A stretch of DNA of 64,000 nt, from NCBI GenBank assembly GCA_963666315.2, contig CAXXHG010000027.1, forward strand, positions 1 through 64,000, given 5' to 3'. Positions 23,126-60,958 of this stretch are shown one piece after another (within the stretch, counting starts at the first letter, position 1; each line of letters starts with the position of its first letter). The DNA comes from Candidatus Binatia bacterium (lineage in GTDB: Bacteria; Desulfobacterota; Binatia; Bin18). The translations under genes were made by a program, and so were the position numbers. Under the pieces are notes generated by a model that was given only the letters and a program-made list of their open reading frames with translations, was not told the DNA's origin and searched no databases.

Positions 23126-23554
23126 TCATGTGACTACCGTCAGCCCGAGTCTTTTAAAATCCCGATCAAAACTCAAGCACGGAATATTCTCCAGCAAAAC
23201 TGTGACAACGACAAACGACAGTGCGTCGCAAAACGATGATTTTTTATCTGTGCCCAATTGTCTGAAAACCTCCTCTGCCTGGCTCTGAATGGAACCGTCA
23301 TAAAGGACGAGACGCAGGGTGGGCTTGACGTGGTCGAGAAACTGTATGGCTCGTTCGTAGCTGCTGCGGTAACGCAGCAGCGTTGCTGTTTCGCTAACAA
23401 TATCCCAAGTACTGTAGAAAACGATATTCTCGGCAACGGATTCTTCTACGAGGCTGCACGCACGTCCATGGTGCGCATCGTTTGAGTCTAAACAAGCATA
23501 GAAGAAAGAGGTGTCACAGAAGACGTACGGTATCCCACCTCCTCGAAGAGTCAT
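23126..23554 (-). CDS. VapC/PIN toxin
   Basis: FCDTSFF..SFCDALSF..SFDRDF. Confidence 0.88.
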   Translation of the reverse strand: MTLRGGGIPYVFCDTSFFYACLDSNDAHHGRACSLVEESVAENIVFYSTWDIVSETATLLRYRSSYERAIQFLDHVKPTLRLVLYDGSIQSQAEEVFRQLGTDKKSSFCDALSFVVVTVLLENIPCLSFDRDFKRLGLTVVT

Positions 23555-23823
23555 CTTTTGGACTCATGCGGATTCGGATAGCGGTGCGCCTTGACGTCCG
23601 CTGAAATCTTTCTCTTTTGACGAGATTTGGACTTCGGCAATTGAGCGGTAATTGCGAGGAGGCTGCTTGCTGCCTCCCCACCCTGGGGAAGCTGGGCTGG
23701 GGCCTTGAGTTCCGCGACGACTTCTTGGCGGACGGTAATTTCGTATGTCAAGCTCGGATTGTGTTTCAATTGCTTCACCAACTGGGAAAGCTTAGCCCGA
23801 ACCTGACTAATTGGAATTTGCAT
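23551..23823 (-). CDS. Phd/YefM-like antitoxin
   Basis: ISQVRAKLSQLV..EIT..VVAEL; 4-bp overlap with toxin. Confidence 0.8.
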   Translation of the reverse strand: MQIPISQVRAKLSQLVKQLKHNPSLTYEITVRQEVVAELKAPAQLPQGGEAASSLLAITAQLPKSKSRQKRKISADVKAHRYPNPHESKR

Positions 23824-27433: not shown

Positions 27434-28159
27434 GTGGATTATAAACAAGAATTTCTCGATTTGTTGCTGAAGAAGAACGGGTTGAAAATTGCCGCCGACG
27501 CCGACTCCTTCTTCCAATTAAAAAGCGGTCGCGCTAGTCCGAGTTTTGTGTCGCTGGGTTCCCTGACCGACGGGGACAGTCTGCTGACCTTAAAGAAATG
27601 TTATAGCCAGGCAGCCATGGAAGGCGTCCAGCAGGGCATCCTCAAGGACTTTCAGTACGTTTTTGGTCCGGCCTATAAAGGCATTATTCTCGGAGCGCTA
27701 ACGTGTGAAGGACTCCAGGAGTATAGCAATAAATCTACTTTTTTCCTGTACGATCGGAAAGAAGAGAAGACCCACGGAGAGGTGACGCAGGGCGACGCCG
27801 CCGGGAAAGTCATTGTCGGCACGGAGAGTTTCGTGCAGTCGAGTGCCATCCTGCTTGTCGACGATGTGGTCACAACAGGCAAAGCCAAGTATGAGGCCCT
27901 GGAAAAAATCCGGCTGCTCGGAAAACACGACATCGCCGGCATGGTTGTGGCCGTGGATCGACAAGAATTAATGGGTGATGCACACGATGTGAGTAAGCTG
28001 AGTGCCATCCAAGCACTCGAACAAGAGCTGGGAATCAAAACGTTTGCCATTCTGACTATGCAAGAGATATTCAGCCGGGTGAAAGACACACTCTCTCAGG
28101 ACGTCCGGCGGGCCTGGGTCGCCTACTATGAGCGTTACGGTGCCGTCCGGATAGAGTGA
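27434..28159 (+). CDS. pyrE: Orotate phosphoribosyltransferase
   Basis: LKSGRASP, FGPAYKGI, DRKEEKTHGE, LVDDVVTTG. Confidence 0.88.
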   Translation: MDYKQEFLDLLLKKNGLKIAADADSFFQLKSGRASPSFVSLGSLTDGDSLLTLKKCYSQAAMEGVQQGILKDFQYVFGPAYKGIILGALTCEGLQEYSNKSTFFLYDRKEEKTHGEVTQGDAAGKVIVGTESFVQSSAILLVDDVVTTGKAKYEALEKIRLLGKHDIAGMVVAVDRQELMGDAHDVSKLSAIQALEQELGIKTFAILTMQEIFSRVKDTLSQDVRRAWVAYYERYGAVRIE

Positions 28160-28192
28160 GAGCATCCTGCACCCTAAGACAGTCTCATGTAG

Positions 28193-28690
28193 TTGAGCGG
28201 ACACGACAATTCAAAGCGGTCTAGGGTTCTTGCGGTGCTGATACTCTATTTTCCATTTCTGCTACTAGTACTAGTGTTTTTGCTCACTATCGCCCTCAGA
28301 TATCGACGGCCTGCTTGGTCACGTTCTCTCTACCGCGGGTTACTCGTTCTGTCGATACTGCCGTATGGTCTCCACGTGACGAACAACGTTATGTACACCA
28401 CTAGGTCGCTGAGCATGTCACCCGGAACATACCAAGGCATGTTTGCGTACGTGGTGGCGAGTTGTCTCACTATACTGTCGCTGCTTGTCGTAACGATGGT
28501 CCTTGTCCGACGAGTGCCACTTGCTACGTCGTTGCTACCGGCCTGTACTTGGCTCTTATACTGGTATGGCTGTCTGCCTATCATTTATCGAGAGCTCGAA
28601 GGGATATGACATTTGGACAATGTTCCGAACGTCTGGCTCTTTGTATCGAGCGCCTTCTCCGTTGTCCTCTTGGCCGGTACGGCCCCCTTG
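28193..28690 (+). pseudogene. Membrane protein, interrupted near 28607 and truncated
   Basis: Four hydrophobic segments; reading continues HLDNVPNVWLFVSS after the stop, then junction. Confidence 0.4.
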
Positions 28691-28963
28691 GGTGCCGGCT
28701 TGTGTCTGGACCTGATACCAGCTGTTGCCTTTTCCTAAGACGTGGACAACGTGGCCCTCTTTAACGACAGCCAGGATGGTGCCTTGCAGAGAAGGGGAGG
28801 CGCGCAAGTTCGCATTCTTCGCTATAACAGCCGAAGAGGGGAATTCCTCTGACTGGGCAAAGCTCGCCGCCAAGCTAACCGCAAAACTTACAGATGGATG
28901 AACAAGGCCGTCCATCCCCCACATCAACACTGGAAATATAAAAAACCCCGCGCGTAGGGTCAT
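28690..28963 (-). pseudogene. Truncated secreted SH3b-domain protein
   Basis: NANLRASPS..ILAVVKEG..VLGKGNSWYQVQTQAGTQG, cut before the final strand. Confidence 0.7.
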
Positions 28964-29159
28964 TATTCCTGTACGGATCTCATTAAGTTAATCGAACCAC
29001 GACTTCATATGTAGACTTTTATGACAGCACAAGGGCGGCGCTGCATGATTGGTTGCACGGCGTGTAAGGCGGGTTCTTGTTGGGGTGGGGGGACGAGGCA
29101 ACCTCGTCCCGACAGTTGTTGTGACTCGGGCCTATAAATCACTGCGCGAACGCGGCGCT

Positions 29160-30947
29160 TCACTGCGCGATTACACGGCGCTGCTGGGTTGCGTCTTCAT
29201 CAACCGTCATTGTCTGAGGGTTGATAACCACGCCGTAGTCTTTTTCCGCCATCTTTACCGTAATGAAGTCGTCGAGCACATCGTCTAAAACGAGCTGGGG
29301 ATCGCGCTCAAACGGATTGCCGTAGGCTCCACTGTTTGCGGTCTTAATCTGGATCAGCTCGTTTGCCTGCATGGGATAGCCGGTGACTTTACTATACAAC
29401 GACTCTTCACCCTCAACACCTGGATTCTTAATCATCGATGCCCGGCAGCCATCCCCACCGTTGAAGATTCCCTTCGGTGGATCAAAATGTCGCTCTGCCT
29501 CCGATGACAAATAGCCTGGCACGAGAAAACGATTCTCACGTACAATGCCTATCCCGCCGCGCCATTTCCCCGGCGCAATCGGCTCATCACGCAGCTCGTA
29601 GCGCTCGTTGCGCAGAGGAAAACGCATATCCAGCTCTTCGACCGGATTATTTCGCGTATTCTCAATCAAGCAAGCTATGGAGTCGAGGCCGTCTTTGCCC
29701 AAACGGCCGCCCCAATTGCCTTCGTTGACTTCCAGATACACCCAGTACTGTCCTTTCTCTTCAAGAAAGCCGCTATAGCTCAGGAAATGAACATGCGCGG
29801 CATTGCCGGCACACACCTTGTCCGGAACCGCCTGGGCAAGGGCAAGGTTCACCCCATCAGCTAGATACTGGACCTGATTAAAACGACTAAAACAGGCGCG
29901 CGGAAAACGCGGATTAAAAATGCTGCCCTCCGGCGCAATGACGGTAATGGGCCGAAAGATGCCTTCGTTTTGCGGCACTGCATCGGGATAGGTGGCTTCA
30001 TCAAGCAGTATACTGCGCACAATGACGTAGGACGCGACCAGCGTGCTGCCCTCAAACGGCACGTTATAGCCCGTTGGGACCTCGGGACTTGAGCCGGTGA
30101 GATCGATGGTCAACTCGCTGCCGTCGACTTTGACCTTGACGCACACGGCAAGCGGCTGATCGCGATTGCGCCCATCGTCGTCGAGATATTGAGTTGGCGC
30201 GACATACTCACCGTCCGGAATTCTCTCGATCTCTTTGCGTAGCATGCGCTCTGAGTAATCCATCAGCTCGTGAGCGGTATCCAGCACAGTGGTCGCACCA
30301 TATTTTTCAATCAGACGCAGAAAGCGTTCTCGTCCGAGCTGACAGGCGGCGATCATGGATTCAATATCGCCCGCATTCATCTCCGGAGTGCGAACATTAT
30401 CGAGAAAGAAATTCCACAGCTCATCATTGCGCACGCCCTTGTTGTACAGCTTAATGCCATTGAACAGTCGGGACTCCGCCCATACATCGACCACATCAAC
30501 ATTGATTCCGGGCGCGGCTCCCCCCATATCGAGCAGATGGGCGGTGACTGCGGCAAAGCCAATGAGTTCGCCTTGCCAGAACACCGGCACAGCGATGCCT
30601 AAATCGGGTGTATGGGATGCGCCCAAATAGGGATGGTTATGAAGAATGACGTCGCCGTCGTTGATCTTGCCTTTGAGCCGTTTCAAGAAGCCGCGAATAT
30701 AGGCGGGCAGCGACCCCACGTGCATGGGCGAGGTATCGCTCTCACAGATTTCGTTGCCCTCAGCGTCATACAGACCCGCCCCAAGGTCTTCAGACTCGCG
30801 GATAATGCTGGAGTAGGACATACGGTAGAGGACGTGCGCCATCTCTTTGGCCGCGGCAGTGAAAGCGCCGCTCAAGACGCGCAGGGTGATCGGGTCCTTT
30901 GAACGGGAGGCGCCGTTGGGTGCTGGGTGTCCGTTTGTTGAGGCCAT
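29160..30947 (-). CDS. Hydantoinase B/oxoprolinase family subunit
   Basis: SSIIRESED, NHPYLGASHTPD, NVRTP. Confidence 0.93.
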   Translation of the reverse strand: MASTNGHPAPNGASRSKDPITLRVLSGAFTAAAKEMAHVLYRMSYSSIIRESEDLGAGLYDAEGNEICESDTSPMHVGSLPAYIRGFLKRLKGKINDGDVILHNHPYLGASHTPDLGIAVPVFWQGELIGFAAVTAHLLDMGGAAPGINVDVVDVWAESRLFNGIKLYNKGVRNDELWNFFLDNVRTPEMNAGDIESMIAACQLGRERFLRLIEKYGATTVLDTAHELMDYSERMLRKEIERIPDGEYVAPTQYLDDDGRNRDQPLAVCVKVKVDGSELTIDLTGSSPEVPTGYNVPFEGSTLVASYVIVRSILLDEATYPDAVPQNEGIFRPITVIAPEGSIFNPRFPRACFSRFNQVQYLADGVNLALAQAVPDKVCAGNAAHVHFLSYSGFLEEKGQYWVYLEVNEGNWGGRLGKDGLDSIACLIENTRNNPVEELDMRFPLRNERYELRDEPIAPGKWRGGIGIVRENRFLVPGYLSSEAERHFDPPKGIFNGGDGCRASMIKNPGVEGEESLYSKVTGYPMQANELIQIKTANSGAYGNPFERDPQLVLDDVLDDFITVKMAEKDYGVVINPQTMTVDEDATQQRRVIAQ

Positions 30948-30970
30948 CCCGTTATCTCCTGTGTCTCACT

Positions 30971-33058
30971 TTACTCACACGCAATAATCAGCGTGCCATA
31001 CTGATCGACTTCTGCGGACAAACCGGGATTGACTACGACCGTGCTGTCAAGCTGCTCAATAATGGCTGGTCCAGTGATGATATTCCCTGCTTTCAACCGC
31101 GTGCGGTCATAGAATGCGGTTGAGAGTTTCTCTGGTTTGCCATCCGCATCGAATGTGACGTCCAACGTTGAAGTCAGGGCCTCTTGCGCATTGGCATTGC
31201 CGACTGGAATATCTTTCAAACGCAGCTCGGGAATGAGGCCGACTCCCTGTACCCGAATATTAACGATCTGGATGTCGCTGTCTGGAAAGCGCCGCGCGTA
31301 TTCGCGTTCATGGGCGGTATGGAACGCTTCAGCAGCCTGCTCTTGCCAGGCCGGAGTAATATCGCCGAGCGGCAGTGCGACTCGCAACTCGTAACCCTGA
31401 CCGGTATAGCGGCAGTCGGCAATACGTCGGATCAAAGACTGCTGCGCGGACTGGTCCGCGTCCATGCCGTCTACTTGGAGCCGCTCGATGGCCTGTTTTT
31501 CAAGTACAGCAAAGTCTGTTGCAAGTTTGTCACGATCCAGCGTCGAGAAGAGCTGCATCTCAGTGGCGACAAACTCATACACAATGTCTGTTGCCAGGAG
31601 TCCTAGCGCCGAAGTAATGCCAGGGTAACGCGGCACCAGGATCTTAGGAATATGAAGTTCTTGCGCAATATCACACGCAAACAACGGTCCGGCTCCGCCT
31701 GCGGCAACAAGCGCAAAGTCGCGCGGGTCATAGCCCTTTTGGACACTGCTGATTTCAATGCCCTCGATCATACTGTGGGTCAGAATCCGCACAGCGCCGA
31801 GGGCTGCTTGGTCAAGGTCCACGCCTAACGGCTGACACAGCTCTCGGTGCACAGCCTCCTCGGCCAAACGTGGTTGGACTTGAACCTGACCGCCCAGAAA
31901 GTTCTCCGCTCGGATTTTGCCCAGGACAACCAGGGCGTCGGTTGCCGTTGGTTGTCTGCCGCCTTTGCCATAACACGCCGGGCCGGGATCGGCGCCCGCG
32001 CTCTTCGGGCCCACCCGAAACATGCCGCCTGCGTCAATATAGGCCAGGCTGCCTCCGCCCGCCCCAATGGTATCAATCTCGACCATCGGGATCATGGCGT
32101 GATAGCCTGCAACCCTGGTATCGAGCAAATGCTTCATCCGTATCTGGCCGTCGGGCGCAACGCCGATGTCCGCAGACGTCCCGCCCACGTCGAGGGTGAT
32201 GACGCTGGGAGAGCTCGTACTCTTGCCGGTCCAAATCCCACCGATGAGACCGGCAACCGGCCCAGACATCAGCAGATTGACCGGACGATAGGCTGCGCCT
32301 TCGGTGGTGGCCATGCCGCCGACCGACGTCATCAGATGTAGTCCGCCATGAATACCCTTGTCGGTGATGGTCTGATCCAGGCGCCTGACATACCGACTGA
32401 TCTGTGGGCCGACATAGGCGTTGAGACAGACCGTACTAAAACCCTCGTACTCTCGGTACTGCGGCAATACTTCATGCCGGACGGACAGATAGCAGTCAGG
32501 GTATTCCTCCAGAATGATTTCTTTGGTTCGTTTCTCGTGGGCCGGGTTGAGAAACGAGAAGAGATAGCACACGGCAATAGATTCAACGCCTTCGTCTTTG
32601 AGCAAGCGTACGGCCTGGCGGACTTCGTCTTCGTCAAGTGGGGTGAGCACTTCACCCTGAGGCGCAATGATGCGTTCCGTTATAGGCCGCCGGTAGCGAC
32701 GCCGCACAAGCGGATGCTTCTGCCACGGTACGTCTTGATACAGACTAAACGACAACGGACGCTTGTGGCGCGCGATGTGGAGAATATCGCGGTAGCCCTT
32801 GGTGGTGAGCATGCCGACTTTAGCCCCAGTATGTTCCAGCACGATGTTCGTGGCCACCGTCGTACCGTGAAAAAAATGATCAATCTGCGCCGGTGTGATA
32901 CCTGCGCGCTCACACAGTTCATCCACACCTTGGAGAGCAGCCTGGGAGGGATCTACCGGCGTACTGGGCAGCTTACGAACGACGACTTCGCCGTTTTCCT
33001 CATCAATATAAATCAAATCGGTGAACGTCCCACCGACATCGACCCCAACACGTTTCAT
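30971..33058 (-). CDS. Hydantoinase A/oxoprolinase family subunit
   Basis: VDVGGTFTD, HGTTVATN, DVGGTSAD, SAGADPGPACY. Confidence 0.95.
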   Translation of the reverse strand: MKRVGVDVGGTFTDLIYIDEENGEVVVRKLPSTPVDPSQAALQGVDELCERAGITPAQIDHFFHGTTVATNIVLEHTGAKVGMLTTKGYRDILHIARHKRPLSFSLYQDVPWQKHPLVRRRYRRPITERIIAPQGEVLTPLDEDEVRQAVRLLKDEGVESIAVCYLFSFLNPAHEKRTKEIILEEYPDCYLSVRHEVLPQYREYEGFSTVCLNAYVGPQISRYVRRLDQTITDKGIHGGLHLMTSVGGMATTEGAAYRPVNLLMSGPVAGLIGGIWTGKSTSSPSVITLDVGGTSADIGVAPDGQIRMKHLLDTRVAGYHAMIPMVEIDTIGAGGGSLAYIDAGGMFRVGPKSAGADPGPACYGKGGRQPTATDALVVLGKIRAENFLGGQVQVQPRLAEEAVHRELCQPLGVDLDQAALGAVRILTHSMIEGIEISSVQKGYDPRDFALVAAGGAGPLFACDIAQELHIPKILVPRYPGITSALGLLATDIVYEFVATEMQLFSTLDRDKLATDFAVLEKQAIERLQVDGMDADQSAQQSLIRRIADCRYTGQGYELRVALPLGDITPAWQEQAAEAFHTAHEREYARRFPDSDIQIVNIRVQGVGLIPELRLKDIPVGNANAQEALTSTLDVTFDADGKPEKLSTAFYDRTRLKAGNIITGPAIIEQLDSTVVVNPGLSAEVDQYGTLIIACE

Positions 33059-33161
33059 CGCTATCCTTCCTCAAAACAATAATTCATACTCTCGCCCTTG
33101 TATGTCATTCCGGCCTGGATGGTCAAATGTCTTGCGCCACAGCGAAACGAACTGAGGAACA

Positions 33162-35192: not shown

Positions 35193-35320
35193 TGGCTTTC
35201 CCCTCTCTTCGTATATGAAACGCTTCTCGTCATTGCCAAAAATGAAGAAGAAGTCAAGGAGAATCGGAGGTCAAGCCTGACAGAGAAAACACAACAGTAC
35301 TCCTCATACGGCCGCGCTCG

Positions 35321-35767
35321 TTACTGCGTATCCATGCGTTCGGGATTGGCAATCTCGATCCCCTCGTTCTCAGCTGCTCGCAGTAATTGGTGGTCAGCAC
35401 AGACAAATGTCAGATCTGCCTTGGTGCGTTGGCGAAACCACAATGCCGAGCAGAGGTGGATCGCATCAAATCCTCTTAACGCATGGCGTTGGACAAGCGC
35501 GAGCAGATCAGCAAAAACGGCATCGGAGACCTCGACAACGACACATTCCTGCCATTCGTGCTGAAAGCTGTCTACGGCAGATGTAAAACCACGCTCCGTT
35601 ACTTCACGAACTCTACGTTTACGCGCCAAGGCAGCGAGCAGCTCAGCGTAGGCAACCCGCGAAGCAACGAGGATATTATCCGGGACAAAGAGGCTATGCA
35701 CCCACGAAGAGCCCGCCTCGGAGTAGTAACGTTTTACAAGGGCGCTGGTGTCGAGATAATAGATCAC
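35321..35767 (-). CDS. VapC/PIN toxin
   Basis: YLDTSALVKRY, LRGFDAIHL. Confidence 0.92.
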   Translation of the reverse strand: MIYYLDTSALVKRYYSEAGSSWVHSLFVPDNILVASRVAYAELLAALARKRRVREVTERGFTSAVDSFQHEWQECVVVEVSDAVFADLLALVQRHALRGFDAIHLCSALWFRQRTKADLTFVCADHQLLRAAENEGIEIANPERMDTQ

Positions 35768-36045
35768 CGCCTTCCCTCTTGTATGAGCCGGGAAGCGGGT
35801 TTGCCCTTACCCTTCACTGCCGGTGCTTTGGAAAGAAACCCGTGCCCATGAGGGAGTGATACTGACCCCTCAGCGGCGAGACCGGCCAATTGGCCGGTCA
35901 GGTCGCTGACTTCATCCCCAGTGGCTGGTTTGACAACTGCGATCGGTTTGCCCCGGTCTGTAACTATAAGTGTCGTGCCTTGGCGAACGAGCCGAAGATA
36001 ATGGGTCAGCCGATCTTTTAACTCGCGTGTTCCAACGGTGAACAT
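35764..36045 (-). CDS. Phd/YefM antitoxin
   Basis: VGTRELKDRL..VTDRGKPIA. Confidence 0.92.
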   Translation of the reverse strand: MFTVGTRELKDRLTHYLRLVRQGTTLIVTDRGKPIAVVKPATGDEVSDLTGQLAGLAAEGSVSLPHGHGFLSKAPAVKGKGKPASRLIQEGRR

Positions 36046-36068
36046 GTTTGTCCCTCGATAGTCTTTTG

Positions 36069-36085
36069 GTAGCTATAATAGCCAC
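36069..36085. promoter_or_regulatory. Probable TA operator
   Basis: Imperfect palindrome gtagctat-a-atagccac upstream of the antitoxin. Confidence 0.5.
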
Positions 36086-36224
36086 AAGGTGAGGCAGGAG
36101 CAAATCCTTTGCTGAAATTATTGAAAGAATACCCCCTTAGATACTGCCCTGTTGGCGGAGCTGTTTGGGTAGGATAGGCTGACCAAAACATATAATAAGA
36201 TCAGTAACGAAGGAGGCTAGATTC

Positions 36225-37400: not shown

Positions 37401-37430
37401 GCGCCGCGATGTGAGAAAACAGACAAAAAG

Positions 37431-37457
37431 AGAGGGGCGGATTTTCCGCCCCTTTTT
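37431..37457 (+). terminator. Intrinsic terminator
   Basis: aggggcgg-atttt-ccgcccct-tttt. Confidence 0.75.
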
Positions 37458-37608
37458 CGTTGTGCGGTAGGGACAGTAGGGACGCTAAGGAATGGATGGG
37501 CGATTTTGCGCAATTGCAAACTGCCTGATGATAGCGCATGATCGAGACAAGTAGGGCTGTTGGCCCGAGCGCAATGCAAGCGCAAGAAAAAGTCAGGAGG
37601 AGGGTCTT

Positions 37609-38271
37609 ATGTGTGGCCGATATAGCCTGACGTCGGATGCGGAACGGATCAATGCGCATTTTATCGCTCGATCTACGCCCTCTCCTCAGGCGGCCCGCTA
37701 CAATATTGCCCCAACCCAGCCGGTCTGGGCTCTGGTCCATACGGATGAGCCCAAGATCGTCGCGCTGCGCTGGGGGCTTATCCCCTCGTGGGCCAAGGAC
37801 AAAGCCATCGGCAATCGAATGATCAATGCCCGCTCCGAAGGGATTGCGGAAAAGTCGAGTTTTCGTCGAGCGCTACGCAAACGGCGCTGTCTGGTGCTCG
37901 CGGACGGATTTTACGAATGGAAAAAAGAGGGCAAGTCCAAGGTGCCGCATTATATTAGACTCAAGTCGGGCGAACCATTTGGCTTTGCCGGCTTATGGGA
38001 AACGTGGTCCGCGCCGTCCGGAGAAACGATACAGTCGTGTACCATTATTACGACAACACCAAACGCCTTACTAGCAGAAATGCACAACCGTATGCCGGTA
38101 ATCTTGCCGCGCAACGTAGAAGCCCAGTGGCTTGATCCGCATGTCGAAAACCCACAAAAAATCCTGCCGTTGCTCGGCCCGTATCCCGAAGACGAGATGG
38201 AAACCCATGCGGTTTCAACCGTGGTCAATTCTCCGCGTAATGACGTAGCTGCTTGTATTGAGCCGGCTTAA
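37609..38271 (+). CDS. SRAP (YedK/HMCES) abasic-site protein
   Basis: MCGRY, RYNIAPTQ, INARSE, GFYEW, HNRMP. Confidence 0.95.
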   Translation: MCGRYSLTSDAERINAHFIARSTPSPQAARYNIAPTQPVWALVHTDEPKIVALRWGLIPSWAKDKAIGNRMINARSEGIAEKSSFRRALRKRRCLVLADGFYEWKKEGKSKVPHYIRLKSGEPFGFAGLWETWSAPSGETIQSCTIITTTPNALLAEMHNRMPVILPRNVEAQWLDPHVENPQKILPLLGPYPEDEMETHAVSTVVNSPRNDVAACIEPA

Positions 38272-38334
38272 TAGACATTCCGAAAAGGTCGTCCAGACGA
38301 GGTAATCTCGCCCCTACGATCATTTGTTAATGGA

Positions 38335-38372
38335 AGAAAAGATTCGGAGCCGGGTGCAGGGGCCCGGCTCCG
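38335..38372 (-). terminator. Intrinsic terminator
   Basis: Minus strand cggagccggg-cccctgca-cccggctccg-aatcttttc. Confidence 0.75.
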
Positions 38373-38548
38373 CTGGGATAGAGGAGGGATGGGGAGAGTG
38401 TGTTAGTAGGCTCTGAAGTGGAGAGAACAAGTGAGTTGGCATGGGGCCATATGCCCCGGCTTACCAGTTCCCCAAGCGGGTCCACCTTTGAACAGCTGCT
38501 TGGTCCACCAATTGGAGCAGTGGCCTCTCCCGATAAGCCATCACTCTG
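38335..38548 (-). ncRNA. Candidate sigma54-dependent structured sRNA
   Basis: Consensus -24/-12 promoter upstream, 10-bp closing helix, internal hairpins, CU-rich tract, strong terminator hairpin. Confidence 0.6.
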
Positions 38549-38557
38549 ATTGTCTGC

Positions 38558-38573
38558 AGCAATGGACGTGCCA
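38558..38573 (-). promoter_or_regulatory. Sigma54 (RpoN) promoter
   Basis: TGGCACGTCCATTGCT matches TGGCACG-N4-TTGCW exactly; AT-rich tract near 38690-38720 upstream. Confidence 0.75.
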
Positions 38574-38910
38574 GAAAAGAATAGGCCGAACGGGCTAGAC
38601 GCAGTTGAGTGCTGTCAGCCTGCAGCCGCGAGATGAACAGGTTGAGGCCGCCCTTGAAGCCGTCATCCTTGTAGACCCGAAGTGCTATGTTTTTCTTGGA
38701 AAAATAAAATAAAGCAACTTTGGTCCAACTCTGATTCAACTCTGATATTGGAGAAGCGATGGGCCCGAGCCCGGTCCCGGCCTGTACTGTTCTGACGTTT
38801 CTTAGCGAAAAAACCGAACGAGACCGTCCGCTTTCTGTTTGCAGAAACCTACAATCATGTAGGGAAATACCCACACTTTGAAAAGGCGGGAAGCAAACGT
38901 AGAGTGCCGT

Positions 38911-39444
38911 CTATTCTGACTCCGGCTCAAGATCAACTTGGGTTGCATGCAGAAAGCGGACAACCATATTGTAAAAGGCAGTGTTAAGACTCAGCTCGAC
39001 AATCTGCTCTTCATCGAAAAAATCACGCAGTGCGTCAAAGGTCGCATCCGTGACACGCACCTGCTGGGTCATCCCGGTTGCATACCGAATCACGGCCCGT
39101 TCCTGTGCATTAAAAGCTGGGTCGGTCTCCCAGTCGGCCAGTCGTTCGACTTGTTCGAGACGGACGCCGACCCGTTTGGCGAAGGCCTGGTGGTGGGTGT
39201 ATTCGTACTCGCAATCAGTCAACCTGCCGACTGTCATGATGGCCAGTTCGCGCAGCCGTGGATCAAGTTTCGTGCGGTTGCGTAGCCCATCGCTGAAATA
39301 CAGCATGCGCCGTAGCAGTAGGGGACTGTGGGCCACAATCCGAAAAATATTGCCAATTGAGCCGCGCTGTTGCAGCAGATCATCAAAAATATCGCGTTCG
39401 AGTTCAGGCAAGTCTTCTCGGTCCAGATAAGGCAGACGGGCCAT
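38911..39444 (-). CDS. Carboxymuconolactone decarboxylase/AhpD family protein
   Basis: LDPRLRELAI..CEYEYTHH..YNMVVRF. Confidence 0.88.
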   Translation of the reverse strand: MARLPYLDREDLPELERDIFDDLLQQRGSIGNIFRIVAHSPLLLRRMLYFSDGLRNRTKLDPRLRELAIMTVGRLTDCEYEYTHHQAFAKRVGVRLEQVERLADWETDPAFNAQERAVIRYATGMTQQVRVTDATFDALRDFFDEEQIVELSLNTAFYNMVVRFLHATQVDLEPESE

Positions 39445-39478
39445 GGTATATTCCTTTTCTTCGTTATTGATCCGGCCC

Positions 39479-40264
39479 CTACCCAAATTCGGGTGGGCGC
39501 TTGGCTAAGAATGCACGCATGCCCTCACGCGCGTCGTTGGATAGGAATATTGATTTTTGGGTGCGGTACTCATAAGCGAGGGCTTGTTCGAGAGACGCTG
39601 TCGCGCCAAGATAGACGCCTTCTTTGATTCGAGCCAGAGTTTCGGCTGGGCCGGCGGCTAACTTGCGAGCAAAATTGAGGGTCTCTTCACGAAAACTATC
39701 CGCCGGATAGACGTGGTTGAGCAGCCCTAGCCGGAGCGCTTCCTCGGCTTTGATGCGATCGCCGGTCATCATGAGTTCCATGGCTTTGGCTGTGCCAACC
39801 AGGCGAGGCAGAAAGAAGAATCCGCCCCAGTCCGGGACAAGACCGATGCGGACAAAGCTTTCGGCAAAAAACGCTCGGTCCGAACCGAGTCGAAAATCGC
39901 AGCTCAAGGCGAGATTCGCACCCGCACCGGCCGCCGCTCCGTTGACTGCAGCGATGACCGGCTGCGGCATACGCCGCAGCAGTTGAACAACCTGGCTGCC
40001 CAGCGTCATCCGTTGTTCAACCACCTCCGTCGCGTTGTCGTCCTGGAGCTGAGCCATACTGGCGATATCACCACCAGCGCAAAAGGCTTTGCCTGCACCC
40101 GTAATGACTACGCACCGAACATCAGGATTTGTCAAGAACTGTTCGAGCTGACTCCGCAGCCGCTCGCGCATTCTATCAGTAAACGCGTTCATCACCTCGG
40201 GCCGGTTCAGCGTCAGTAGTCCGATATGGTCAACGACTTCAGATAAGAGTTGCGTTTCGCTCAT
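39479..40264 (-). CDS. Enoyl-CoA hydratase/isomerase
   Basis: LNRPEVMNA, FCAGGD, GLVPDWG. Confidence 0.93.
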   Translation of the reverse strand: MSETQLLSEVVDHIGLLTLNRPEVMNAFTDRMRERLRSQLEQFLTNPDVRCVVITGAGKAFCAGGDIASMAQLQDDNATEVVEQRMTLGSQVVQLLRRMPQPVIAAVNGAAAGAGANLALSCDFRLGSDRAFFAESFVRIGLVPDWGGFFFLPRLVGTAKAMELMMTGDRIKAEEALRLGLLNHVYPADSFREETLNFARKLAAGPAETLARIKEGVYLGATASLEQALAYEYRTQKSIFLSNDAREGMRAFLAKRPPEFG

Positions 40265-42857: not shown

Positions 42858-44382
42858 GACTGCCTGCCAGCCGGCCGAATACGGCGCCGCGCATCAGGCC
42901 TGCGCCGCCGGGATAATTCAAATAGAAAAACCCACCGGTCATTTCACCGGTTGCAAACAGGCCGGGAATGGGCCGATCCAAGTAATCTACGACCGCTGCA
43001 TCAGTATTGATCCGAATCCCACCAAACGTGAAAGTAATACCCAACGAAACGGCATAGGCATGAAACGGTGGGGTATCGAGTCGGGTGGCCCAATTGGTTT
43101 TCTCGGGTCGTAAGCTGGTTGTATGTTTACAGTCCTTTATATCCGGATCGAATTCGCCCTTTTGGACGGCTGCGTTATACGTTTCGAGCGTAGCCAGGAA
43201 AGCGTCTCTCCGAAAATCTAAGGCTGCGTAACGCTCTTCAATCCGGTCCGCCAGATCAGCCAGGGTGGCTGCGATAATGGGCGTGCCCGTATTATAGCGG
43301 GTTTCTAAGAGGGACACGGTCTGCTGGTCAAAGACCTGAAAGATGGTGGCGCTGCGTTGCTGCAAAATTTCGCGGCCCATCTTGGCGTAGGTGTATAGAT
43401 TGGAATCTTCGCCTTCGTCGACAAACCGTTCGCCGTCCAGATTGACCATGACCGAGAATGGGTAGGACAACCGGTTTGTTTTGTCTGTTAGGCGTAGGTC
43501 GCCGTAGATTGGTGCATCCGCGTCAATCGGCGTAGCATGACAGCCCGCCCATTCGCCATAACTTTGGGCTCCGATGCTTAATGCCGCCCGCGTCATCTCC
43601 CCGGTATTGAAACGCGTCCCACGGACTTTGACTAAACTCCAGCTAGGACCCAGATAGGCAGTGCGCATCTCCGGATTGGCCTGGAATCCGCCGCTTGCCA
43701 GAATGAGGGCTTGGCAATCTAGACTACGGGTACCGCTTGGATCGCGGACCTCAAGGCCGGTCACCCGACCGCCGGGGCCGGTCACAATACGCTGGGCTTG
43801 GGTTTCATACCAGACCGGAATGTCGGCTTCACTAGCCAACCGAAACAAAGTGCTGGAGAGAAGAACGCCTTCCCCTTTGGCTCGGAGCGCGCCACCTCGG
43901 GCTAATTTTGTTTTTTGTTTGCCTGCAATAGTCACCGCGCCGACAGCGCGACTAAACTCCCATGCCACACCAAGATCGGCCATCCAGCGTACCGTGTCAT
44001 ACGAACGCGTAATCAAAGTGTGAATCAAGTCGGGATCGGCCCGTCCAGCGGTCACACGTTCAATATCCTGGAGGTAGGCCTCTTTCGTATATGAATCGAC
44101 CACCACATCGCCGGGATCGTCATTGTCCCGGACCAGGGCAACCAGATCGTCAAGCCCATTATACGTGCAGCGGAACACGCCGCCGGTAAACCGGGTATTC
44201 CCACCGCGAAGTTTTTGAGTGGCTTTTTCGAGGACCAGAACCTGGGCGCCCTCGACCTTGGCTGCGAGGGCGGCCGTAAATGCGGCGTTCCCTGCGCCGA
44301 CGACGATTACATCAAAGGAATCTTGGGAATCTAGTGTATCCTGAGACGAGTCAGACAATTCTGCATCCTCCTTCTTGGGCAA
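42829..44382 (-). CDS. TcuA-like FAD-dependent tricarballylate dehydrogenase family
   Basis: GAGNAA, RGGNTRFT, GGFQANPEMR, GITFTFGG, NYPGGAGL. Confidence 0.85.
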   Translation of the reverse strand: MPKKEDAELSDSSQDTLDSQDSFDVIVVGAGNAAFTAALAAKVEGAQVLVLEKATQKLRGGNTRFTGGVFRCTYNGLDDLVALVRDNDDPGDVVVDSYTKEAYLQDIERVTAGRADPDLIHTLITRSYDTVRWMADLGVAWEFSRAVGAVTIAGKQKTKLARGGALRAKGEGVLLSSTLFRLASEADIPVWYETQAQRIVTGPGGRVTGLEVRDPSGTRSLDCQALILASGGFQANPEMRTAYLGPSWSLVKVRGTRFNTGEMTRAALSIGAQSYGEWAGCHATPIDADAPIYGDLRLTDKTNRLSYPFSVMVNLDGERFVDEGEDSNLYTYAKMGREILQQRSATIFQVFDQQTVSLLETRYNTGTPIIAATLADLADRIEERYAALDFRRDAFLATLETYNAAVQKGEFDPDIKDCKHTTSLRPEKTNWATRLDTPPFHAYAVSLGITFTFGGIRINTDAAVVDYLDRPIPGLFATGEMTGGFFYLNYPGGAGLMRGAVFGRLAGSHAARFARGE

Positions 44383-44507
44383 CTATAGCGTGTCTCCCCT
44401 CGCCGTGTATCCCCGTGCGGTCTCTTGACCTGAGGATTCTACTTAGCGTAGACAGAAGAGAAAACCGTGCTGAACCAATCAGAGGCGCGGCAAAAAGGAG
44501 GGACGGT

Positions 44508-44999
44508 ATGAATCCACGTGGAATGTCGCACATTGCCCTGTGTACGAAAGATTTTGATCGATCCATGCATTTCTATTGCGATCTGCTGGGCTTTCAGGTC
44601 GCTCAGAAAGGGACGACGGTAGAGCAGGGCGAATATCAGCGGGGGATCTATAAGAAGAAAGACCGAGAGGTGAAGTTTGCCATTCTGCGCCACGGTGAGA
44701 AGAAAAACACGCCGTATGGGATGAACGAAGATGCTCCGGTCATTGCTCTTATTGCCCCCATTGGCGACCCGCCGACCGGCAAGAGCATTCTCGTTGACCA
44801 GATCGGCATTTCCCACTTTGGGGTGTGGGTGAAAGGCCTTAACAAGGTCCATAAAGATCTTGTCAGTAAAGGCGTAGAATTTGTCGCCCCGCCTCACGTC
44901 CTAGCCAAGACCAAAGACGGTACGATCCGGAGCGCGTTTCTGAAAGATCCGGACGGAATTATTATCCAGCTGGACGAAATGGTTCCGGCTCGGAAGTAG
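44508..44999 (+). CDS. VOC/glyoxalase family protein
   Basis: SHIALC..FYCDLLGF..FLKDPDG. Confidence 0.88.
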   Translation: MNPRGMSHIALCTKDFDRSMHFYCDLLGFQVAQKGTTVEQGEYQRGIYKKKDREVKFAILRHGEKKNTPYGMNEDAPVIALIAPIGDPPTGKSILVDQIGISHFGVWVKGLNKVHKDLVSKGVEFVAPPHVLAKTKDGTIRSAFLKDPDGIIIQLDEMVPARK

Positions 45000-53394: not shown

Positions 53395-54012
53395 TCACGT
53401 AAAGGAAATAGGTTTTTCTTGCGCTCTGCGTTTCTGCATATAATCCCGCATATATTTGCGGCGACTGTCCTTCCTGCCTATTTCGTTGGCAGCGACCGTG
53501 CAATCATGCGAACAATACTTCTGCCTGCGGATGGGGTGGAAGATCGTTCCACATCCCATCCGCGGGCACTCCTTGAAAGGGAACGGCTCGTCGTGTCGCT
53601 CCAGTAGATCGAGCAGGTCATGCACTAGATCGTGATTCACAAAGGTCCCTCCAGCACCGCGCTGAAGTACGCCGTTCTTCAACCTCATGACCCGGTCATC
53701 ATGTCGTCTCAGTTTTTTCATCGATAAAGCTTTTCCCGCCATGAGGTCTCTTACGATGCCTCGGATCCGCGCCTGACTAGCGTCAATCAGCTTCCATTGT
53801 ACGGGAAGCGGTTCCGACCCCCACGAGGGGATAACCCATTCGCGGCTGTCCCACATGACAGCGATCCCGACACCAAAGGTATCGTTATAATCCTCCACGA
53901 GAGCGTGTTTCTCGGAGCGCTTCAAGCGGGCAAGTGACGAGATGTTGACGAGACGCGCATAGAAGCGCAGCCGCTGTGTAGGGTCCTTATCCACCGGGAA
54001 TGGCATATGCAC
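53395..54012 (-). CDS. Putative regulator with C-terminal CGNR-like zinc finger
   Basis: CPRMGC..F..QKYCSHDC plus basic helix; divergent from xis. Confidence 0.65.
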   Translation of the reverse strand: MHMPFPVDKDPTQRLRFYARLVNISSLARLKRSEKHALVEDYNDTFGVGIAVMWDSREWVIPSWGSEPLPVQWKLIDASQARIRGIVRDLMAGKALSMKKLRRHDDRVMRLKNGVLQRGAGGTFVNHDLVHDLLDLLERHDEPFPFKECPRMGCGTIFHPIRRQKYCSHDCTVAANEIGRKDSRRKYMRDYMQKRRAQEKPISFT

Positions 54013-54043
54013 ACGTTAAACAAACTATCTGGCAGAAGCAAGC

Positions 54044-54069
54044 GTTATTATTTGTTAACAATTATTAAC
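54044..54069. promoter_or_regulatory. Imperfect 26-bp palindrome in the divergent promoter region
   Basis: gttattatTTGTTAACAAttattaac. Confidence 0.5.
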
Positions 54070-54132
54070 TTGATTTAGTTTATCCCACCATGTACTCAAT
54101 GACGCAAGGGACACAGAGAGTGAGGACTACCC

Positions 54133-54351
54133 ATGAAGAGCACCCCCGAGCGATTGGCCTACAGCGTTGACGAAGCAGCGATTGTAACCGGCAAAACCTC
54201 GAAAGCCATCCGCGTACTCATCTCGCGCAACCAATTTCCCCACCGGCGTCGCGGACGGTCCATCGTCATTTTGAGGTCAGATCTAGAAGAATTCCTGGCG
54301 GGATTGCCTGGCATTTCCGTTGCGGAAGCGCTCGACAGGATTGCGACGTGA
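54133..54351 (+). CDS. Excisionase-like HTH protein
   Basis: LAYSVDEAA..G..AIR..FPHRRRGRSIVILRSDL. Confidence 0.85.
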   Translation: MKSTPERLAYSVDEAAIVTGKTSKAIRVLISRNQFPHRRRGRSIVILRSDLEEFLAGLPGISVAEALDRIAT

Positions 54352-56729
54352 GCGTAACGATGCAAGACGTGGCCCTGGCTTATGCCGCGCGGGGCTTCCC
54401 GGTATTCCCACTTCTGCCTGGGGAGAAAAAGCCCCATGGCAACCTCGCTCCCCACGGCTTCAGAAATGCAACGACGGACCCTGCCGTTATTGAAGGTTGG
54501 TGGGCCAAAGAACCAAAAGCCAACATTGGCATCCCCACGGGGAATGTCAGCGGTTGGGTTGTGATCGATACCGACAAGGACGACTTGAAAAGTCTTGACG
54601 GTGAGGAGGCCCTGCGCGCTCTTGAAAAGGAGCACGGCGCCTTGCCTAAAACGGTCATGCAACTTACGCCACGCGGTGGGAATCACCGCGTATACCGGGA
54701 TCCTGGGGGCATTCGGTGCAGCGCGGGTAAACTCGGCCCCGGCGTCGACGTCCGGGGCACGGCTGGCTATGTCGCTGTCGATCCGAGCACTAGGCCTGAT
54801 GGTTCTTATGAATGGGAACTGGATCATCATCCCGATGAACTCGAGCCTGCTGAACTACCCGATAAATGGATTGAGCTCCTGCGTGATCAGGATTCAAGCA
54901 AGGCGAAGAGCGGGGATAAATCCAAGCCGGAATCCGCCGCCGGCGGGCCGATCCCAGAAGGAAGGCGCAATGACACTCTCGCCAGCATTGGCGGTTCCCT
55001 GCGACGTATGGGGCACGATGAGGAGGAAATTCTTACCACCCTCCAAGAAGTAAATAGCAGCCGCTGCGAACCTCTCTTGCCTGATCCCGAAGTAGCAAAA
55101 ATAGCGCATAGTATGGCGCAATACGAACCCGGAGCGGGCGCGATTACCGAAGCCACCGCTTCGGACCTACGCGAGAACATCGACGTATTTCTGGCTCAGG
55201 CAAAGGAAACGCAGGACCCAGGTCACGCCTTTCAGGCGATAGAACATCTAGTGCAATTATCTGCTGCGGACTATGCCAGCTACACGGCCAAATTCAAAGA
55301 GATTTTAGGCAGTAAGTTGAATCTCAACGATTTTGCCCGCGCATTCAAGGATGCCAAGAAAGAGGCCGCGCCTGACCGGAAGAATCTCGTTATCCGTCTC
55401 GCTGAGCACATTCTCGAAAAGCAGCATTTCGCCAAGAACGAAGGCCAACAGCTGTATCATTTTGAGGCCGGGCATTATGTTCGGGATGGCGATATTGCCA
55501 TCCAGCGCTTGGTAAAAGAAAGCCTCACTGACTGGGGGGAAATCGATAGTTGGTCGTCATTTCGTGGCCGGGAAGTATTCAACTATATCCTCACTGGAGC
55601 GCAGCAGTTATGGACGCACCGCCCGCCTGACGAAATCCCCGTGTTGGACGGGATCCTGAACCTGCGTACCATAACGCTCCGTCCCCATGACCCGGCCTTT
55701 CTGTCCCCCATTCAATTTCCAGTGATATTTGATCCTGATGCAAGGTGTGAAAAGATCGATAAATTCTTTGAAGAAGTATTTCCAAAGGGCGCAGCAGATC
55801 TCGGCTACGAGATGATTACGGCCATCATTGACCCAGCGTTCGATGACCAGAAGGCTGACCTATTGAGCGGTCCAGGCGGGAGCGGTAAATCCACCTTTTT
55901 GACTCTTGTCATAAATTTCATCGGCATAGAAAACGTGTCCACCTTGTCACTCCATACACTCGAAAACAACCGTTTTGCGATATCCGAGCTGTATGGAAAG
56001 GTCGCCAATATCTGCGCAGATCTACCCGGCACACGGTTGTCCCATACCTCAAACGTCAAAAGCATAACCGGCGGCGACACTGTCCAAGCCGAGATAAAAA
56101 ATGGACGGTTCTTTTCCTTTCGCCCGTATGCACGACTTTTGTTCGCAACGAATCATTTACCCCGAGCAGATGACGCGGACGAGGCGTTCTACCAGTGACT
56201 GCACGTTATTCCTTTTGATAATGTTTTTCGCGGTGTGAAGGGTAAGGAAATCAAGCGAAATAAGCTGGACGCCATGCTTTCAGACCCTACACAATTATCC
56301 GGGCTACTAAACAGAGTCTTGGAAGTTCTGCCAGGATTACGTTCGGACGGATTCGTGGCGTGTCAATTGACGAAAGACGCCTCAGCGGATTTCCGGGTTG
56401 AGACCGACCCGATTAGCATCTGGATGGACAAAAAAACCGTTCAAACGCCGAACGGCTGGGTTCCGAAAGAGGTTCTTCTGCAAGCTTACAACCGGGATGC
56501 CGTAGCCGCTCATCGCCCGCGGGAGACCGCGAATAACTTTGGTCGAGCTGTCACGAGATTTCGGCCTGCTGTCACGGGAAAGCAACGCCGCGTGAATGAA
56601 CAACGAGTGTGGGTGTGGCAGGGAATTGGTCTCGGTACGCCGGAATCTGACCAATCGGCCCCTCATAAGGAGGAGTGTCACGGGAATCTGGATCACTGTC
56701 ACGAGAAAGCTTCTAGCAAAGCAACGTAA
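54348..56729 (+). pseudogene. Bifunctional primase-polymerase/PriCT-1/D5-P4 SF3 helicase, in-frame TGA at 56196-56198
   Basis: NIGIPTG..IDTD, TPRGGNH, EGRRN, GPGGSGKST, KSITGGD, FATNHLP; frame continues AFYQ*LHVIPF. Confidence 0.9.
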
Positions 56730-56892
56730 ATAGATCTGACTTTGTAGGTACTTAGAGCGGGTGTCACGGGAATCACTAAAAAAATCGTATACCCGCGAAT
56801 AAAAAAGGGACCTTAGGTTGGGAAAAACGAGAGGTAGGGGGGGGGTGTTAGTTTGAGAGTGACTGAAAATAATCCAGTGATTCCCGTGACAC
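56549..56892. other. Putative replication origin with TGTCACG(G/A)GA iterons
   Basis: Direct copies at 56549, 56570, 56676, 56697, 56762; 17-bp inverted pair 56761-56777 / 56876-56892. Confidence 0.75.
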
Positions 56893-56935
56893 CGCTTACT
56901 ATTTCGGCCTGCCTCAAGAAAAAACCGAGGTTGGT

Positions 56936-57337
56936 ATGGACGCAGATGCGTTGATTGCCCGCTGTGATGACCTTGGCGTAACGCTGAGCCCGTTGCCTTC
57001 TGGCATGCTCAGGGTTCGATGCAACGGTGAAATCTCAGAATCTCTTCGCTCAGCGCTGAGAGACAACAAAGCTGAAGTGCTGGCCATCCTTGCAGCTATG
57101 GAATGGTTGAAGCCTCGACTCGCAGAGCCTCAACGGATTGCTGACTTAATTTCCGAATGGTGCGGCGGCACGTGTGTCCTTGGCCGCGACGGCGTCGAAC
57201 GCTGGGAGGGGGGAAGAGACGGGACAAATAGCCACGATATTGACGCGTTGTTGGCCGCTCGTTGGCAGCTTAATGTCTACGCGTACTGGGCGGATGACTG
57301 CTCCTGGTGGGCGATGCCCGAAGAATGGGAACAGTAA
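56936..57337 (+). CDS. TubC N-terminal docking-domain-related small protein
   Basis: LIARCDDLGVTL..LRVR..LRSALRDNKAEVLAIL. Confidence 0.7.
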   Translation: MDADALIARCDDLGVTLSPLPSGMLRVRCNGEISESLRSALRDNKAEVLAILAAMEWLKPRLAEPQRIADLISEWCGGTCVLGRDGVERWEGGRDGTNSHDIDALLAARWQLNVYAYWADDCSWWAMPEEWEQ

Positions 57338-57348
57338 GGAGGTAACCA

Positions 57349-57837
57349 ATGGATCGCACATTGAAAAAGATCACACTGAAAGCTCGCACGCCAAAGGAGA
57401 GAAAGAACGTCTATCGGTATCCCTTTGGCGTCAGGAAGAGACGTCTGCGGATACCCACAGACGAGGAATATCGGGCCTATGATGGCGCGCACTGCCATCG
57501 TTTATGGGAATCCCTTTCGGAGAGCTGGCGTTGTCCTGGCTGCCTCAGATCAAAGCGTGAAATCATGCGCTGGACCAAGAGAAAGGCGCGCCCTGACCTG
57601 GGCATTACTGAGGATTACTTTGGCTGGATGGCCGGATTACACCGATATCAGTTTACCGGACCTGTGCTCTGCGATCACTGCAATATCGCCGGCGGATCGG
57701 CAAAGCGAAAACTTGATCTGCCGGAAAACTTTTTCTTTTCACCCGCCGACATCAGACGTTTTGTGAAACCAAAACCGCACCGAGGTCATACAATCGAAAT
57801 AGAACTAGCACTCCATATATATCAGTCTTCGCGGTAA
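57349..57837 (+). CDS. Cys-rich protein, possible degenerate HNH-like nuclease
   Basis: WRCPGC..LCDHCN; AGGAGG RBS; lies just before cos-like motif and terS. Confidence 0.55.
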   Translation: MDRTLKKITLKARTPKERKNVYRYPFGVRKRRLRIPTDEEYRAYDGAHCHRLWESLSESWRCPGCLRSKREIMRWTKRKARPDLGITEDYFGWMAGLHRYQFTGPVLCDHCNIAGGSAKRKLDLPENFFFSPADIRRFVKPKPHRGHTIEIELALHIYQSSR

Positions 57838-57974
57838 ACGATTCTCATGGCTTCGCGGGGCCAAAGGGGACCGGGCGATCCGCCTTCTGTTGTACACCTC
57901 CACCAGCGCCGAGGATGCAACGCTGTGAAGCGGAATAGGAGATTACGATGCGATTGTGAGCCGGACAGCCACCA

Positions 57975-58050
57975 AGCGGGGGAGGGGTCAATCTCTACCG
58001 CCTCATGACTGTGTACCGCGCCCCTTAGGTCAACGTTTGTGCAGGCTTCC
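57975..58050 (+). other. cos-like packaging motif
   Basis: gggggaggggtcaatctcta..gtaccgcgcccc, resembling motifs upstream of P27/HK97-type terS. Confidence 0.55.
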
Positions 58051-58079
58051 CCCGATCAAATGGAAAAAGAGGACGAACA

Positions 58080-60897: not shown

Positions 60898-60899
60898 CG

Positions 60900-60958
60900 G
60901 CGGTCGCGCCTATGTGGCAAATTTGGCTGCCGACACAGTGTCGGTGATCGACACGGCC
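60900..60958 (+). pseudogene. Single YVTN beta-propeller repeat stub
   Basis: GRAYVANLAADTVSVIDTA. Confidence 0.6.

Follow-up and report, generated by a model that had tools for sequence, protein, structure and literature searches.

An orphan sigma-54 promoter-terminator unit, found in one lineage, that may give a small non-coding RNA in a Candidatus Binatia bacterium

In this work, the question was whether the 639 nt between the stop codons of two convergent genes of a Candidatus Binatia bacterium hold a small RNA gene of their own, and whether such a gene would be served by a sigma-54 (RpoN) promoter. The DNA analysed is a stretch of 64,000 nt (GenBank assembly GCA_963666315.2, contig CAXXHG010000027.1, positions 1 to 64,000 of the forward strand), and this whole stretch is called the window. 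The two genes are the SRAP gene (SOS-response-associated peptidase; 37609-38271, plus strand, Pfam E 1e-78) and the CMD gene (carboxymuconolactone-decarboxylase family; 38911-39486, minus strand), the latter being the last in a run with enoyl-CoA hydratase (ECH) and PrpD-like genes. An original prediction, made by reading the letters alone, had placed a trans-acting small RNA (sRNA) in this spacer. Its promoter, its terminator and the open-reading-frame-poor stretch between them stood, but its fold and its pairing seed were not supported, and the unit was missing from the four related genomes compared. We consider it possible, at a probability of about 0.4, that the spacer carries a lineage-specific orphan sigma-54 promoter-terminator unit giving a non-coding transcript of about 210 nt. 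The confidence that this RNA has a regulatory function is much lower.

The promoter motif carries the first part of this reading. A sigma-54 promoter was defined by GG at -24 and GC at -12 at fixed spacing, written as the pattern TGGCACG-N4-TTGCW, and the sequence TGGCACGTCCATTGCT (TGGCACG-TCCA-TTGCT) at 38573-38558 on the minus strand fits it without a mismatch. No other site of the window fits, even when one mismatch is permitted, and with a relaxed pattern it is also the sole match in the window and the four closest related loci (L001-L004) taken together. The exact motif had a mean of 0.01 per shuffled window (one of 100 dinucleotide shuffles held a match), and the exact consensus was matched once across 80 comparison loci. 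The exact RpoN consensus that had been read at this position was thus found again. By simple arithmetic, the chance of an exact match in the 639-nt spacer alone is about 1.5e-4, and the exact 12-position motif is expected about once by chance per 4.5-Mb genome, so that a reader of many windows is bound to find one. Even so, the motif is hard to dismiss, because it is intergenic, is aimed at a strong terminator on the same strand, stands after another terminator and has no open reading frame (ORF) to serve. From its position, transcription is predicted to start near 38547 on the minus strand.

The second part is the terminator. At 38335-38372 on the minus strand, the terminator search gave an intrinsic terminator with a 10-bp stem (38372-38345, nine of the ten pairs being G-C), an 8-nt loop and the tail AAUCUUUUCU. 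The stem, followed by AATCTTTTCT, lies about 175 nt downstream of the predicted start and ranked first among the 27 terminator-like sites listed for 28-48 kb. Its U tract exists on the minus strand only, since no T run follows the stem when the plus strand is read. These results confirm the 10-bp GC terminator that had been described. Thus the promoter and terminator positions delimit a predicted non-coding transcript of about 205-213 nt at 38335-38547 on the minus strand, which has no Rfam match and no coding-like ORFs. In Rfam 15, the whole window gave no match at the gathering score, and the region 38100-39000, searched at E up to 10, gave five noise matches (E at least 1.5, 12.7-19.5 bits, far below gathering), the best of which was the terminator hairpin against terC. 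The RNA therefore still cannot be assigned to a known family after the Rfam scan that the original prediction had suggested as a check. The downstream neighbour SRAP is convergent, so the promoter-terminator unit is not a 5' leader, and the layout, in which a promoter and a strong terminator enclose a stretch poor in ORFs, supports a discrete small transcript as its natural product.

The unit lies on the strand of the ECH-CMD operon with no gene between, and this allows another explanation, in which the stem at 38372-38345 ends that operon and the preceding 540 nt are its long 3' untranslated region (3' UTR), an sRNA being then obtained by processing or from an internal promoter. sRNAs derived from 3' UTRs do exist in sigma-54 regulons, for example GlnZ, as stated in the accessible part of PMC13501541. 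Of relevance to this explanation is a terminator-like hairpin at 38805-38830 on the minus strand (stem 38830-38815, followed by a T6 run), also obtained from the terminator search, which probably ends the upstream operon. It is weak, with six pairs of which one is G-U, and could leak; however, its T6 run is typical of a functioning terminator. Moreover, related genomes have just 17-32 nt between the two stops, which argues that there was no ancestral long UTR. We therefore hold the 3'-UTR explanation to be quite unlikely. This separate upstream hairpin with its T6 run makes the downstream promoter-terminator unit look independent.

Between promoter and terminator the unit has no coding signal. 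Coding was scored as codon log-odds, with 34 Pfam-supported window genes as the training set (their own scores having a mean of 0.273 and a minimum of 0.004). The 26-codon ORF had been described as the only one inside the unit; this was wrong, as there are also same-strand ORFs of 52 amino acids (aa; GTG start, 38485-38327) and 40 aa (ATG start, 38442-38320) and plus-strand ORFs of 49 and 55 aa, and the 26-codon ORF is itself the tail of a minus-strand ORF of 137 aa (38874-38461), whose start is upstream of the promoter. The scores were -0.052 (137 aa), -0.126 (52 aa), -0.236 (40 aa) and -0.097 (26 aa), and the ORFs of the non-coding block as a whole span -0.05 to -0.29, every one scoring under all 34 reference genes. 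It could nevertheless be supposed that the transcript is the mRNA of a small protein, with the 26-, 40- or 52-aa peptide, or the 137-aa ORF spanning the promoter, as a real orphan gene. An AUG stands 6 nt past the predicted start, and an open stretch of 149 codons (38910-38461, minus strand) begins right after the TAG stop of CMD and in its frame, which is mildly unusual, 57 of 2000 spacer shuffles holding one as long. TAG is an ordinary stop in the window (10 of 34 genes), and we take the continuation of the CMD frame as coincidence. Against coding stand not only the scores: the GC1 of the 137-aa ORF is 0.536, lower than the gene range of 0.569-0.684, it has no Pfam family, and no relatives were found in protein searches (5.8 billion proteins; 1.84 billion representatives). 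Furthermore, it would span both the terminator-like hairpin and the promoter, the 40- and 52-aa ORFs cross the terminator stem, and on inspection of the sequence no Shine-Dalgarno was seen before any of these ORFs, the AUG near the start having a 6-nt leader without one. An mRNA for a small protein is thus very improbable, and the dual-function RNA that had been considered is unsupported as well, given the score of the 26-codon ORF and its short leader.

The non-coding promoter-terminator unit has to be weighed against a group of results which all count against it, concerning its activator, its conservation, its fold and its pairing. As regards the activator, no gene for sigma-54 or for an enhancer-binding protein was found by Pfam scan in 64 of the 66 chosen window ORFs of at least 90 aa (the ORFs at 35764-36045 and 44280-44999 were unscanned). 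Activator sites of sigma-54 promoters are usually inverted repeats about 80-200 nt upstream, and no local inverted repeat (seed of at least 6) was listed between the promoter and 38830. The features that do lie upstream of the promoter are a tandem ATCAGAGTTG repeat, a 9-bp palindrome TTGGACCAA and an AT tract, none of which was matched to a known activator. The repeat, given by a repeat search as ATCAGAGTTG(A/G) in tandem, is at 38747-38725 on the minus strand, and a third AATCAGAGT at 38551-38543 on the same strand overlaps the predicted start. By simple arithmetic, 620 nt should hold about 0.7 exact 9-mer pairs, so the repeated AATCAGAGT is near chance, and the ATCAGAGTTG/AATCAGAGT repeat may be either a protein-binding motif or chance. 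The upstream AT tract of the original prediction is visible at about 38713-38688 on the minus strand, some 140-165 nt upstream of the predicted start, where it might have a role in DNA bending. The palindrome TTCTGCAAACAGAA, with 5-bp arms and a 4-nt spacer, is likewise present on the minus strand (38846-38833), but with about 290 nt separating it from the predicted start downstream, and the hairpin 38830-38815 in between, it is unlikely to be an activator site.

As regards conservation, 80 comparison loci were gathered by a search of genome contigs with the SRAP protein, the source genome not being among them. The closest four are all metagenome-assembled genomes, labelled Candidatus Binatia (L001 and L002), Thermodesulfobacteriota (L003) and delta proteobacterium (L004), with SRAP amino-acid identities of 84, 79, 77 and 65%, respectively. 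Gene order is kept over about 19 kb in the first three at 71-81% DNA identity, and in L004 in shorter pieces at 69-73%. By contrast with the 639 nt of the window, the stop-to-stop spacing of SRAP and CMD is 32 nt in L001, 17 nt in L002 and L003, and about 120 nt in L004. Alignment showed that window positions 38921-38900 are homologous to the short spacer of L001 and that 38272-38899 is extra. This 628-nt non-coding block (GC 52.4%) lies between the SRAP stop (38271, plus strand) and the short spacer by the CMD stop (38911, minus strand), and it contains the first hairpin, the AT tract, the promoter, the RNA and the terminator. It is absent from the same spacer in all four related genomes that have the SRAP-CMD arrangement, though the flanks align at about 69-81%. 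The CMD protein tail EPGA is common to the window, L002 and L004, with EPDA in L003, which suggests that the short spacer is probably ancestral. The original prediction had itself named missing conservation of promoter and helices as a result that would speak against it, and in every related genome examined this was found, the unit being absent from four of four.

No copy of the unit was seen elsewhere. The spacer gave only three chance-level matches to the 80 loci by blastn with word size 7 (16-21 nt, E 0.057-0.69), none of them in L001-L004, and a search of these loci and of the remaining window by nhmmer found no copy. A word-indexed search of 5.8 billion proteins with the 137-aa ORF gave 82 word-sharing candidates, none with E of 0.01 or below; the 95-aa stop-to-stop frame over promoter, RNA and terminator had no match in 1.84 billion representatives; and the 49-aa plus-strand ORF, which has a good ribosome-binding site, gave no candidate in the word-indexed protein search. 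Such proxy-ORF searches are weak evidence of absence, because copies without a called ORF are missed.

The origin of the block was also considered. The terminal direct repeat at its ends is not significant (36 of 500 shuffles as good), nor is the inverted one (217 of 500), and TCTA, present at both junctions, is with its 4 nt too short to count. A second copy in the window was not found by blastn-short, and the 639-nt spacer had no match among plasmids and phages in a distant blastn search. A miniature inverted-repeat transposable element or the remnant of an insertion sequence was rejected for want of significant terminal repeats, of a second copy (window, 80 loci) and of a plasmid or phage match. 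The gap between the thiolase gene and SRAP is about 730-840 nt in the related genomes and 208 nt in the window; relocation of the block from this gap was rejected, as the extra DNA there is unlike the block by blastn. In L001 and L002 this gap holds, at about 9170-9990, an ORF of 199 aa on the opposite strand between thiolase and SRAP, which is absent from window positions 37401-37608 and reads as thiol-peroxidase-like from the motif ...SVPSVDTPVCDTE... in its sequence. A bidirectional terminator at 37433-37453 is kept in the window. The CMD-SRAP spacer of L004, about 120 nt long, has at about 10700-10790 a direct repeat GACTATAGGCT present twice and an inverted copy followed by a T run; this appears to be a terminator hairpin of a sequence unrelated to the window block.

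As regards the fold, a z of -1.81 was obtained for the complete RNA, whose stability was equalled by 10 of 200 shuffles. Without the terminator, z is -0.53 and 54 of 200 shuffles are as stable; thus the whole-RNA value is due to the terminator, and there is no sign of selected RNA structure. The robust stems are only the terminator and one internal hairpin, GGGGC-AUAUG-GCCCC at 38457-38443 on the minus strand, whose stem-base unpaired probability is at most 0.01; this hairpin had been correctly predicted. The enclosing helix proposed on its 5' side (38458-38539, minus strand; arms 38539-38530 and 38467-38458, with two GGUGGACC copies within) fared worse on folding. GGCUUAUCGG is complementary to CUGGUAAGCC over 10 pairs, two of them G-U, but the forced helix gives -72.1 kcal/mol against a minimum free energy (MFE) of -78.6 kcal/mol, which is 6.5 worse, and its pair probabilities are 0.0. 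The two hairpins said to carry GGTGGACC are therefore left with both copies of that sequence (38509-38502 and 38486-38479 on the minus strand, 23 nt apart, near chance by simple arithmetic) but without thermodynamic support for the architecture enclosing them. The 213 nt contain 5 GGA motifs, where shuffles average 2.4 +/- 1.4 and 142 of 2000 have at least 5. A CsrA sponge of the CsrB/RsmZ type, in which many GGA motifs lie mostly in the loops of hairpins, was rejected on this lack of enrichment, and the suggestion of protein binding to GGA loops is unsupported; in the MFE structure, the UGGAC of the second GGUGGACC sits in a stem.

These results bring in an explanation in which the block is silent: functionless filler, such as acquired or decayed DNA, with a sigma-54 site that is never activated and a hairpin which merely stops convergent transcription. 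It is favoured by the absence of the block from four of four related genomes, by an RNA body without structure signal, by the lack of an activator gene or a clear activator site nearby and by the chance rate of about one exact motif per 4.5-Mb genome; the block GC of 52.4% is unremarkable. Furthermore, the accessible part of PMC4591121 describes E. coli sigma-54 holoenzyme as binding promoter DNA in a transcriptionally inactive state, with many more bound sites than the promoters known at that time, and such inactive and numerous sites fit the silent explanation. On the other hand, the chance of the match is about 1.5e-4 for the spacer and 0.01 for the window, the motif is oriented to the top-ranked of the listed terminators (28-48 kb), which no ORF needs, and a terminator-like hairpin is already provided for the upstream operon. 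In our judgement, a silent site in young DNA without function is a tentative explanation nearly equal to that of the active unit.

Just before the terminator, the putative RNA has a CU-rich stretch CUCUCCCCAUCCCUCCUCUAUCCC (38398-38375, minus strand; 22 of 24 nucleotides are pyrimidines), complementary to ribosome-binding sites of the GGAGG type. Nine such stretches, this one included, occur on the two strands of the window. Motifs of the GGAG, GAGG or AGGA kind are found within -22 to -3 in 25 of 46 window start regions, and the SRAP start carries AGGAGGAGGG, so an anti-Shine-Dalgarno seed would have sites to pair with. In the MFE structure, however, CUCUCCC of the stretch is paired with the 5' GGGAGAG of the same RNA, and the unpaired probability is below 0.1 at most of RNA positions 150-168. 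Against the 46 start regions, all within the 64-kb window, which is what the target test covered, the mean duplex energy of the seed was -11.7 kcal/mol compared to -11.0 +/- 0.7 kcal/mol for shuffled seeds. Of the anti-Shine-Dalgarno seed proposed originally, the pyrimidine content was confirmed; its accessibility is predicted to be low, and no significant preference for window starts over shuffled seeds was seen.

The second-best partner of this seed is the neighbouring SRAP start, at -24.1 kcal/mol, and a control of SRAP by antisense RNA could be imagined, in which transcripts reading through the terminator could end at the bidirectional terminator 37453-37433. The convergent layout and the strong minus-strand-competent hairpin just beyond the SRAP start fit this idea, as does the pairing itself. 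But 95 of 2000 shuffled seeds equal -24.1 kcal/mol, so that the pairing is not significant and the SRAP ribosome-binding site was rejected as a neighbour target. In addition, most transcripts should end at a 10-bp stem that has nine G-C pairs and is followed by a U tract, and the hairpin 37433-37453 can be accounted for as the thiolase terminator. Antisense control of SRAP thus deserves very little credence.

We hypothesize the following sequence of events for the lineage-specific promoter-terminator unit. The 628-nt block between the convergent genes would carry a self-contained transcription unit, and in a host with RpoN and a matching enhancer-binding activator some signal would lead to a discrete non-coding RNA of about 210 nt. 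The activator, unlinked to the unit, would fire, and the sigma-54 holoenzyme would then transcribe the RNA. If the RNA has any mode of action, the likeliest is base-pairing of its CU-rich 3' part (CCCUCCUCU) with ribosome-binding sites of the GGAGG type, for which this part may first need release from the 5' GGGAGAG of the RNA itself. The promoter motif, the terminator, the missing coding signal and the absence of the block from related genomes were observed; transcription, its dependence on sigma-54, the RNA ends and any target or function we infer. A bolder form of this hypothesis, which we consider unlikely, is a newborn regulatory RNA restricted to one species within the uncultured class Binatia. 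Its complete module, with the upstream terminator, the AT tract, the exact sigma-54 promoter, the RNA and the strong terminator, would have arisen or inserted as a block of 0.63 kb between two convergent genes of a housekeeping type, and the RNA would repress the translation of mRNAs led by GGAGG once an unlinked enhancer-binding protein is activated. If true, it would mean that the birth of an sRNA gene had been caught early, and it would be the first regulatory RNA proposed for the lineage. If the unit is transcribed, it would bring a small RNA driven by sigma-54 from a lineage of phylum level for which metagenomes are the only source, and would also serve as a clean case of an sRNA gene of very recent origin, as the closest available genomes are without it. 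As it stands, the case is one promoter motif and one terminator without evolutionary or structural backing, and it opens no long-standing question. In the literature search, Binatota and Binatia were not named in the top-ranked matches on RpoN, sigma-54 or enhancer-binding protein, which is the scope of that search (lower-ranked matches are outside it).

Other features were observed in the window. A second sigma-54-like motif, TGGCATTTCCGTTGC, lies at 54309-54323 on the plus strand with GG-N10-GC spacing, about 24 nt before a primase-polymerase/D5-like gene (54348-56198), and could be chance or a sigma-54 promoter within a mobile element. The region of about 54000-62300 is integrative-element- or prophage-like, with this Prim-Pol/D5_N/DUF5906 gene, a tyrosine integrase (61187-62299) and several ORFs without family; it has a weak small-terminase match at 58080-58514 and GC up to 0.60-0.61 at 58-62 kb. 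No tRNA gene was found in the window. A PIN-domain gene (35321-35767) and a small upstream ORF (35764-36045) lie within 35260-36145, a segment absent in L002 and L003, whose alignments skip from window position 35259 to 36146 within 6 nt; the segment has the look of a toxin-antitoxin insertion specific to the lineage, and a further PIN pair occupies 23126-23823. Another indel, in a gene order that is otherwise kept, was seen when 28149-33148 was compared with L001 and L002: their aligned parts lack the hydantoinase A/B (oxoprolinase-like) gene pair at 29160-33058, which L003 has.

Small RNAs driven by sigma-54 are an established kind, represented by Pxr, Qrr and GlmY/GlmZ; these known members are conserved, and the candidate shares with them the promoter type only. 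Curated Rfam models exist for Qrr and GlmY/GlmZ, whose genes are as a rule found next to the activator or its operon. They resemble the candidate in being small RNAs with a sigma-54 promoter, theirs with a dedicated activator. They differ in being conserved families, whereas the window gives no match at an Rfam threshold, and no activator gene stands beside the candidate (64 of 66 window ORFs scanned). According to the parts of these sources that are accessible, sigma-54 transcription of the Qrr sRNAs depends on LuxO (PMC13501541), GlmY/GlmZ are sigma-54 small RNAs with the activator GlrR/QseF (PMC3045617), and a glmY-qseEGF linkage is mentioned (PMC8745638). In the portion available of PMC5568312, Pxr of Myxococcus and Cystobacter 'appears to be transcribed from an upstream sigma54 promoter', and the likeness to the candidate is that of a stand-alone intergenic sRNA gene with a predicted sigma-54 promoter some way past the preceding gene. 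Unlike the candidate, which is about 210 nt and has no excess stability, Pxr is there a 108-nt RNA with a stable triple stem-loop, and pxr adjoins the regulator gene nla19. The organisation of the candidate locus is not like that of pxr, with no regulator gene in the scanned window ORFs and the unit absent from four of four relatives, which also counts against the candidate.

In its C/U-rich stretch complementary to G-rich ribosome-binding sites just before the terminator, the candidate resembles the sRNAs of the RsaE/RoxS type. Those sRNAs of Firmicutes have C-rich motifs in exposed loops or linkers. The stretch of the candidate is unlike them in being predicted as mostly paired, single and with no preference for start regions over shuffles. 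Finally, the candidate is like the inactive sigma-54 sites of E. coli in that its -24/-12 motif is good but neither a target gene nor an activator can be recognised for it. Those sites are mostly intragenic, as far as the accessible part of PMC4591121 describes them, whereas the motif of the candidate is intergenic and is followed by a terminator.

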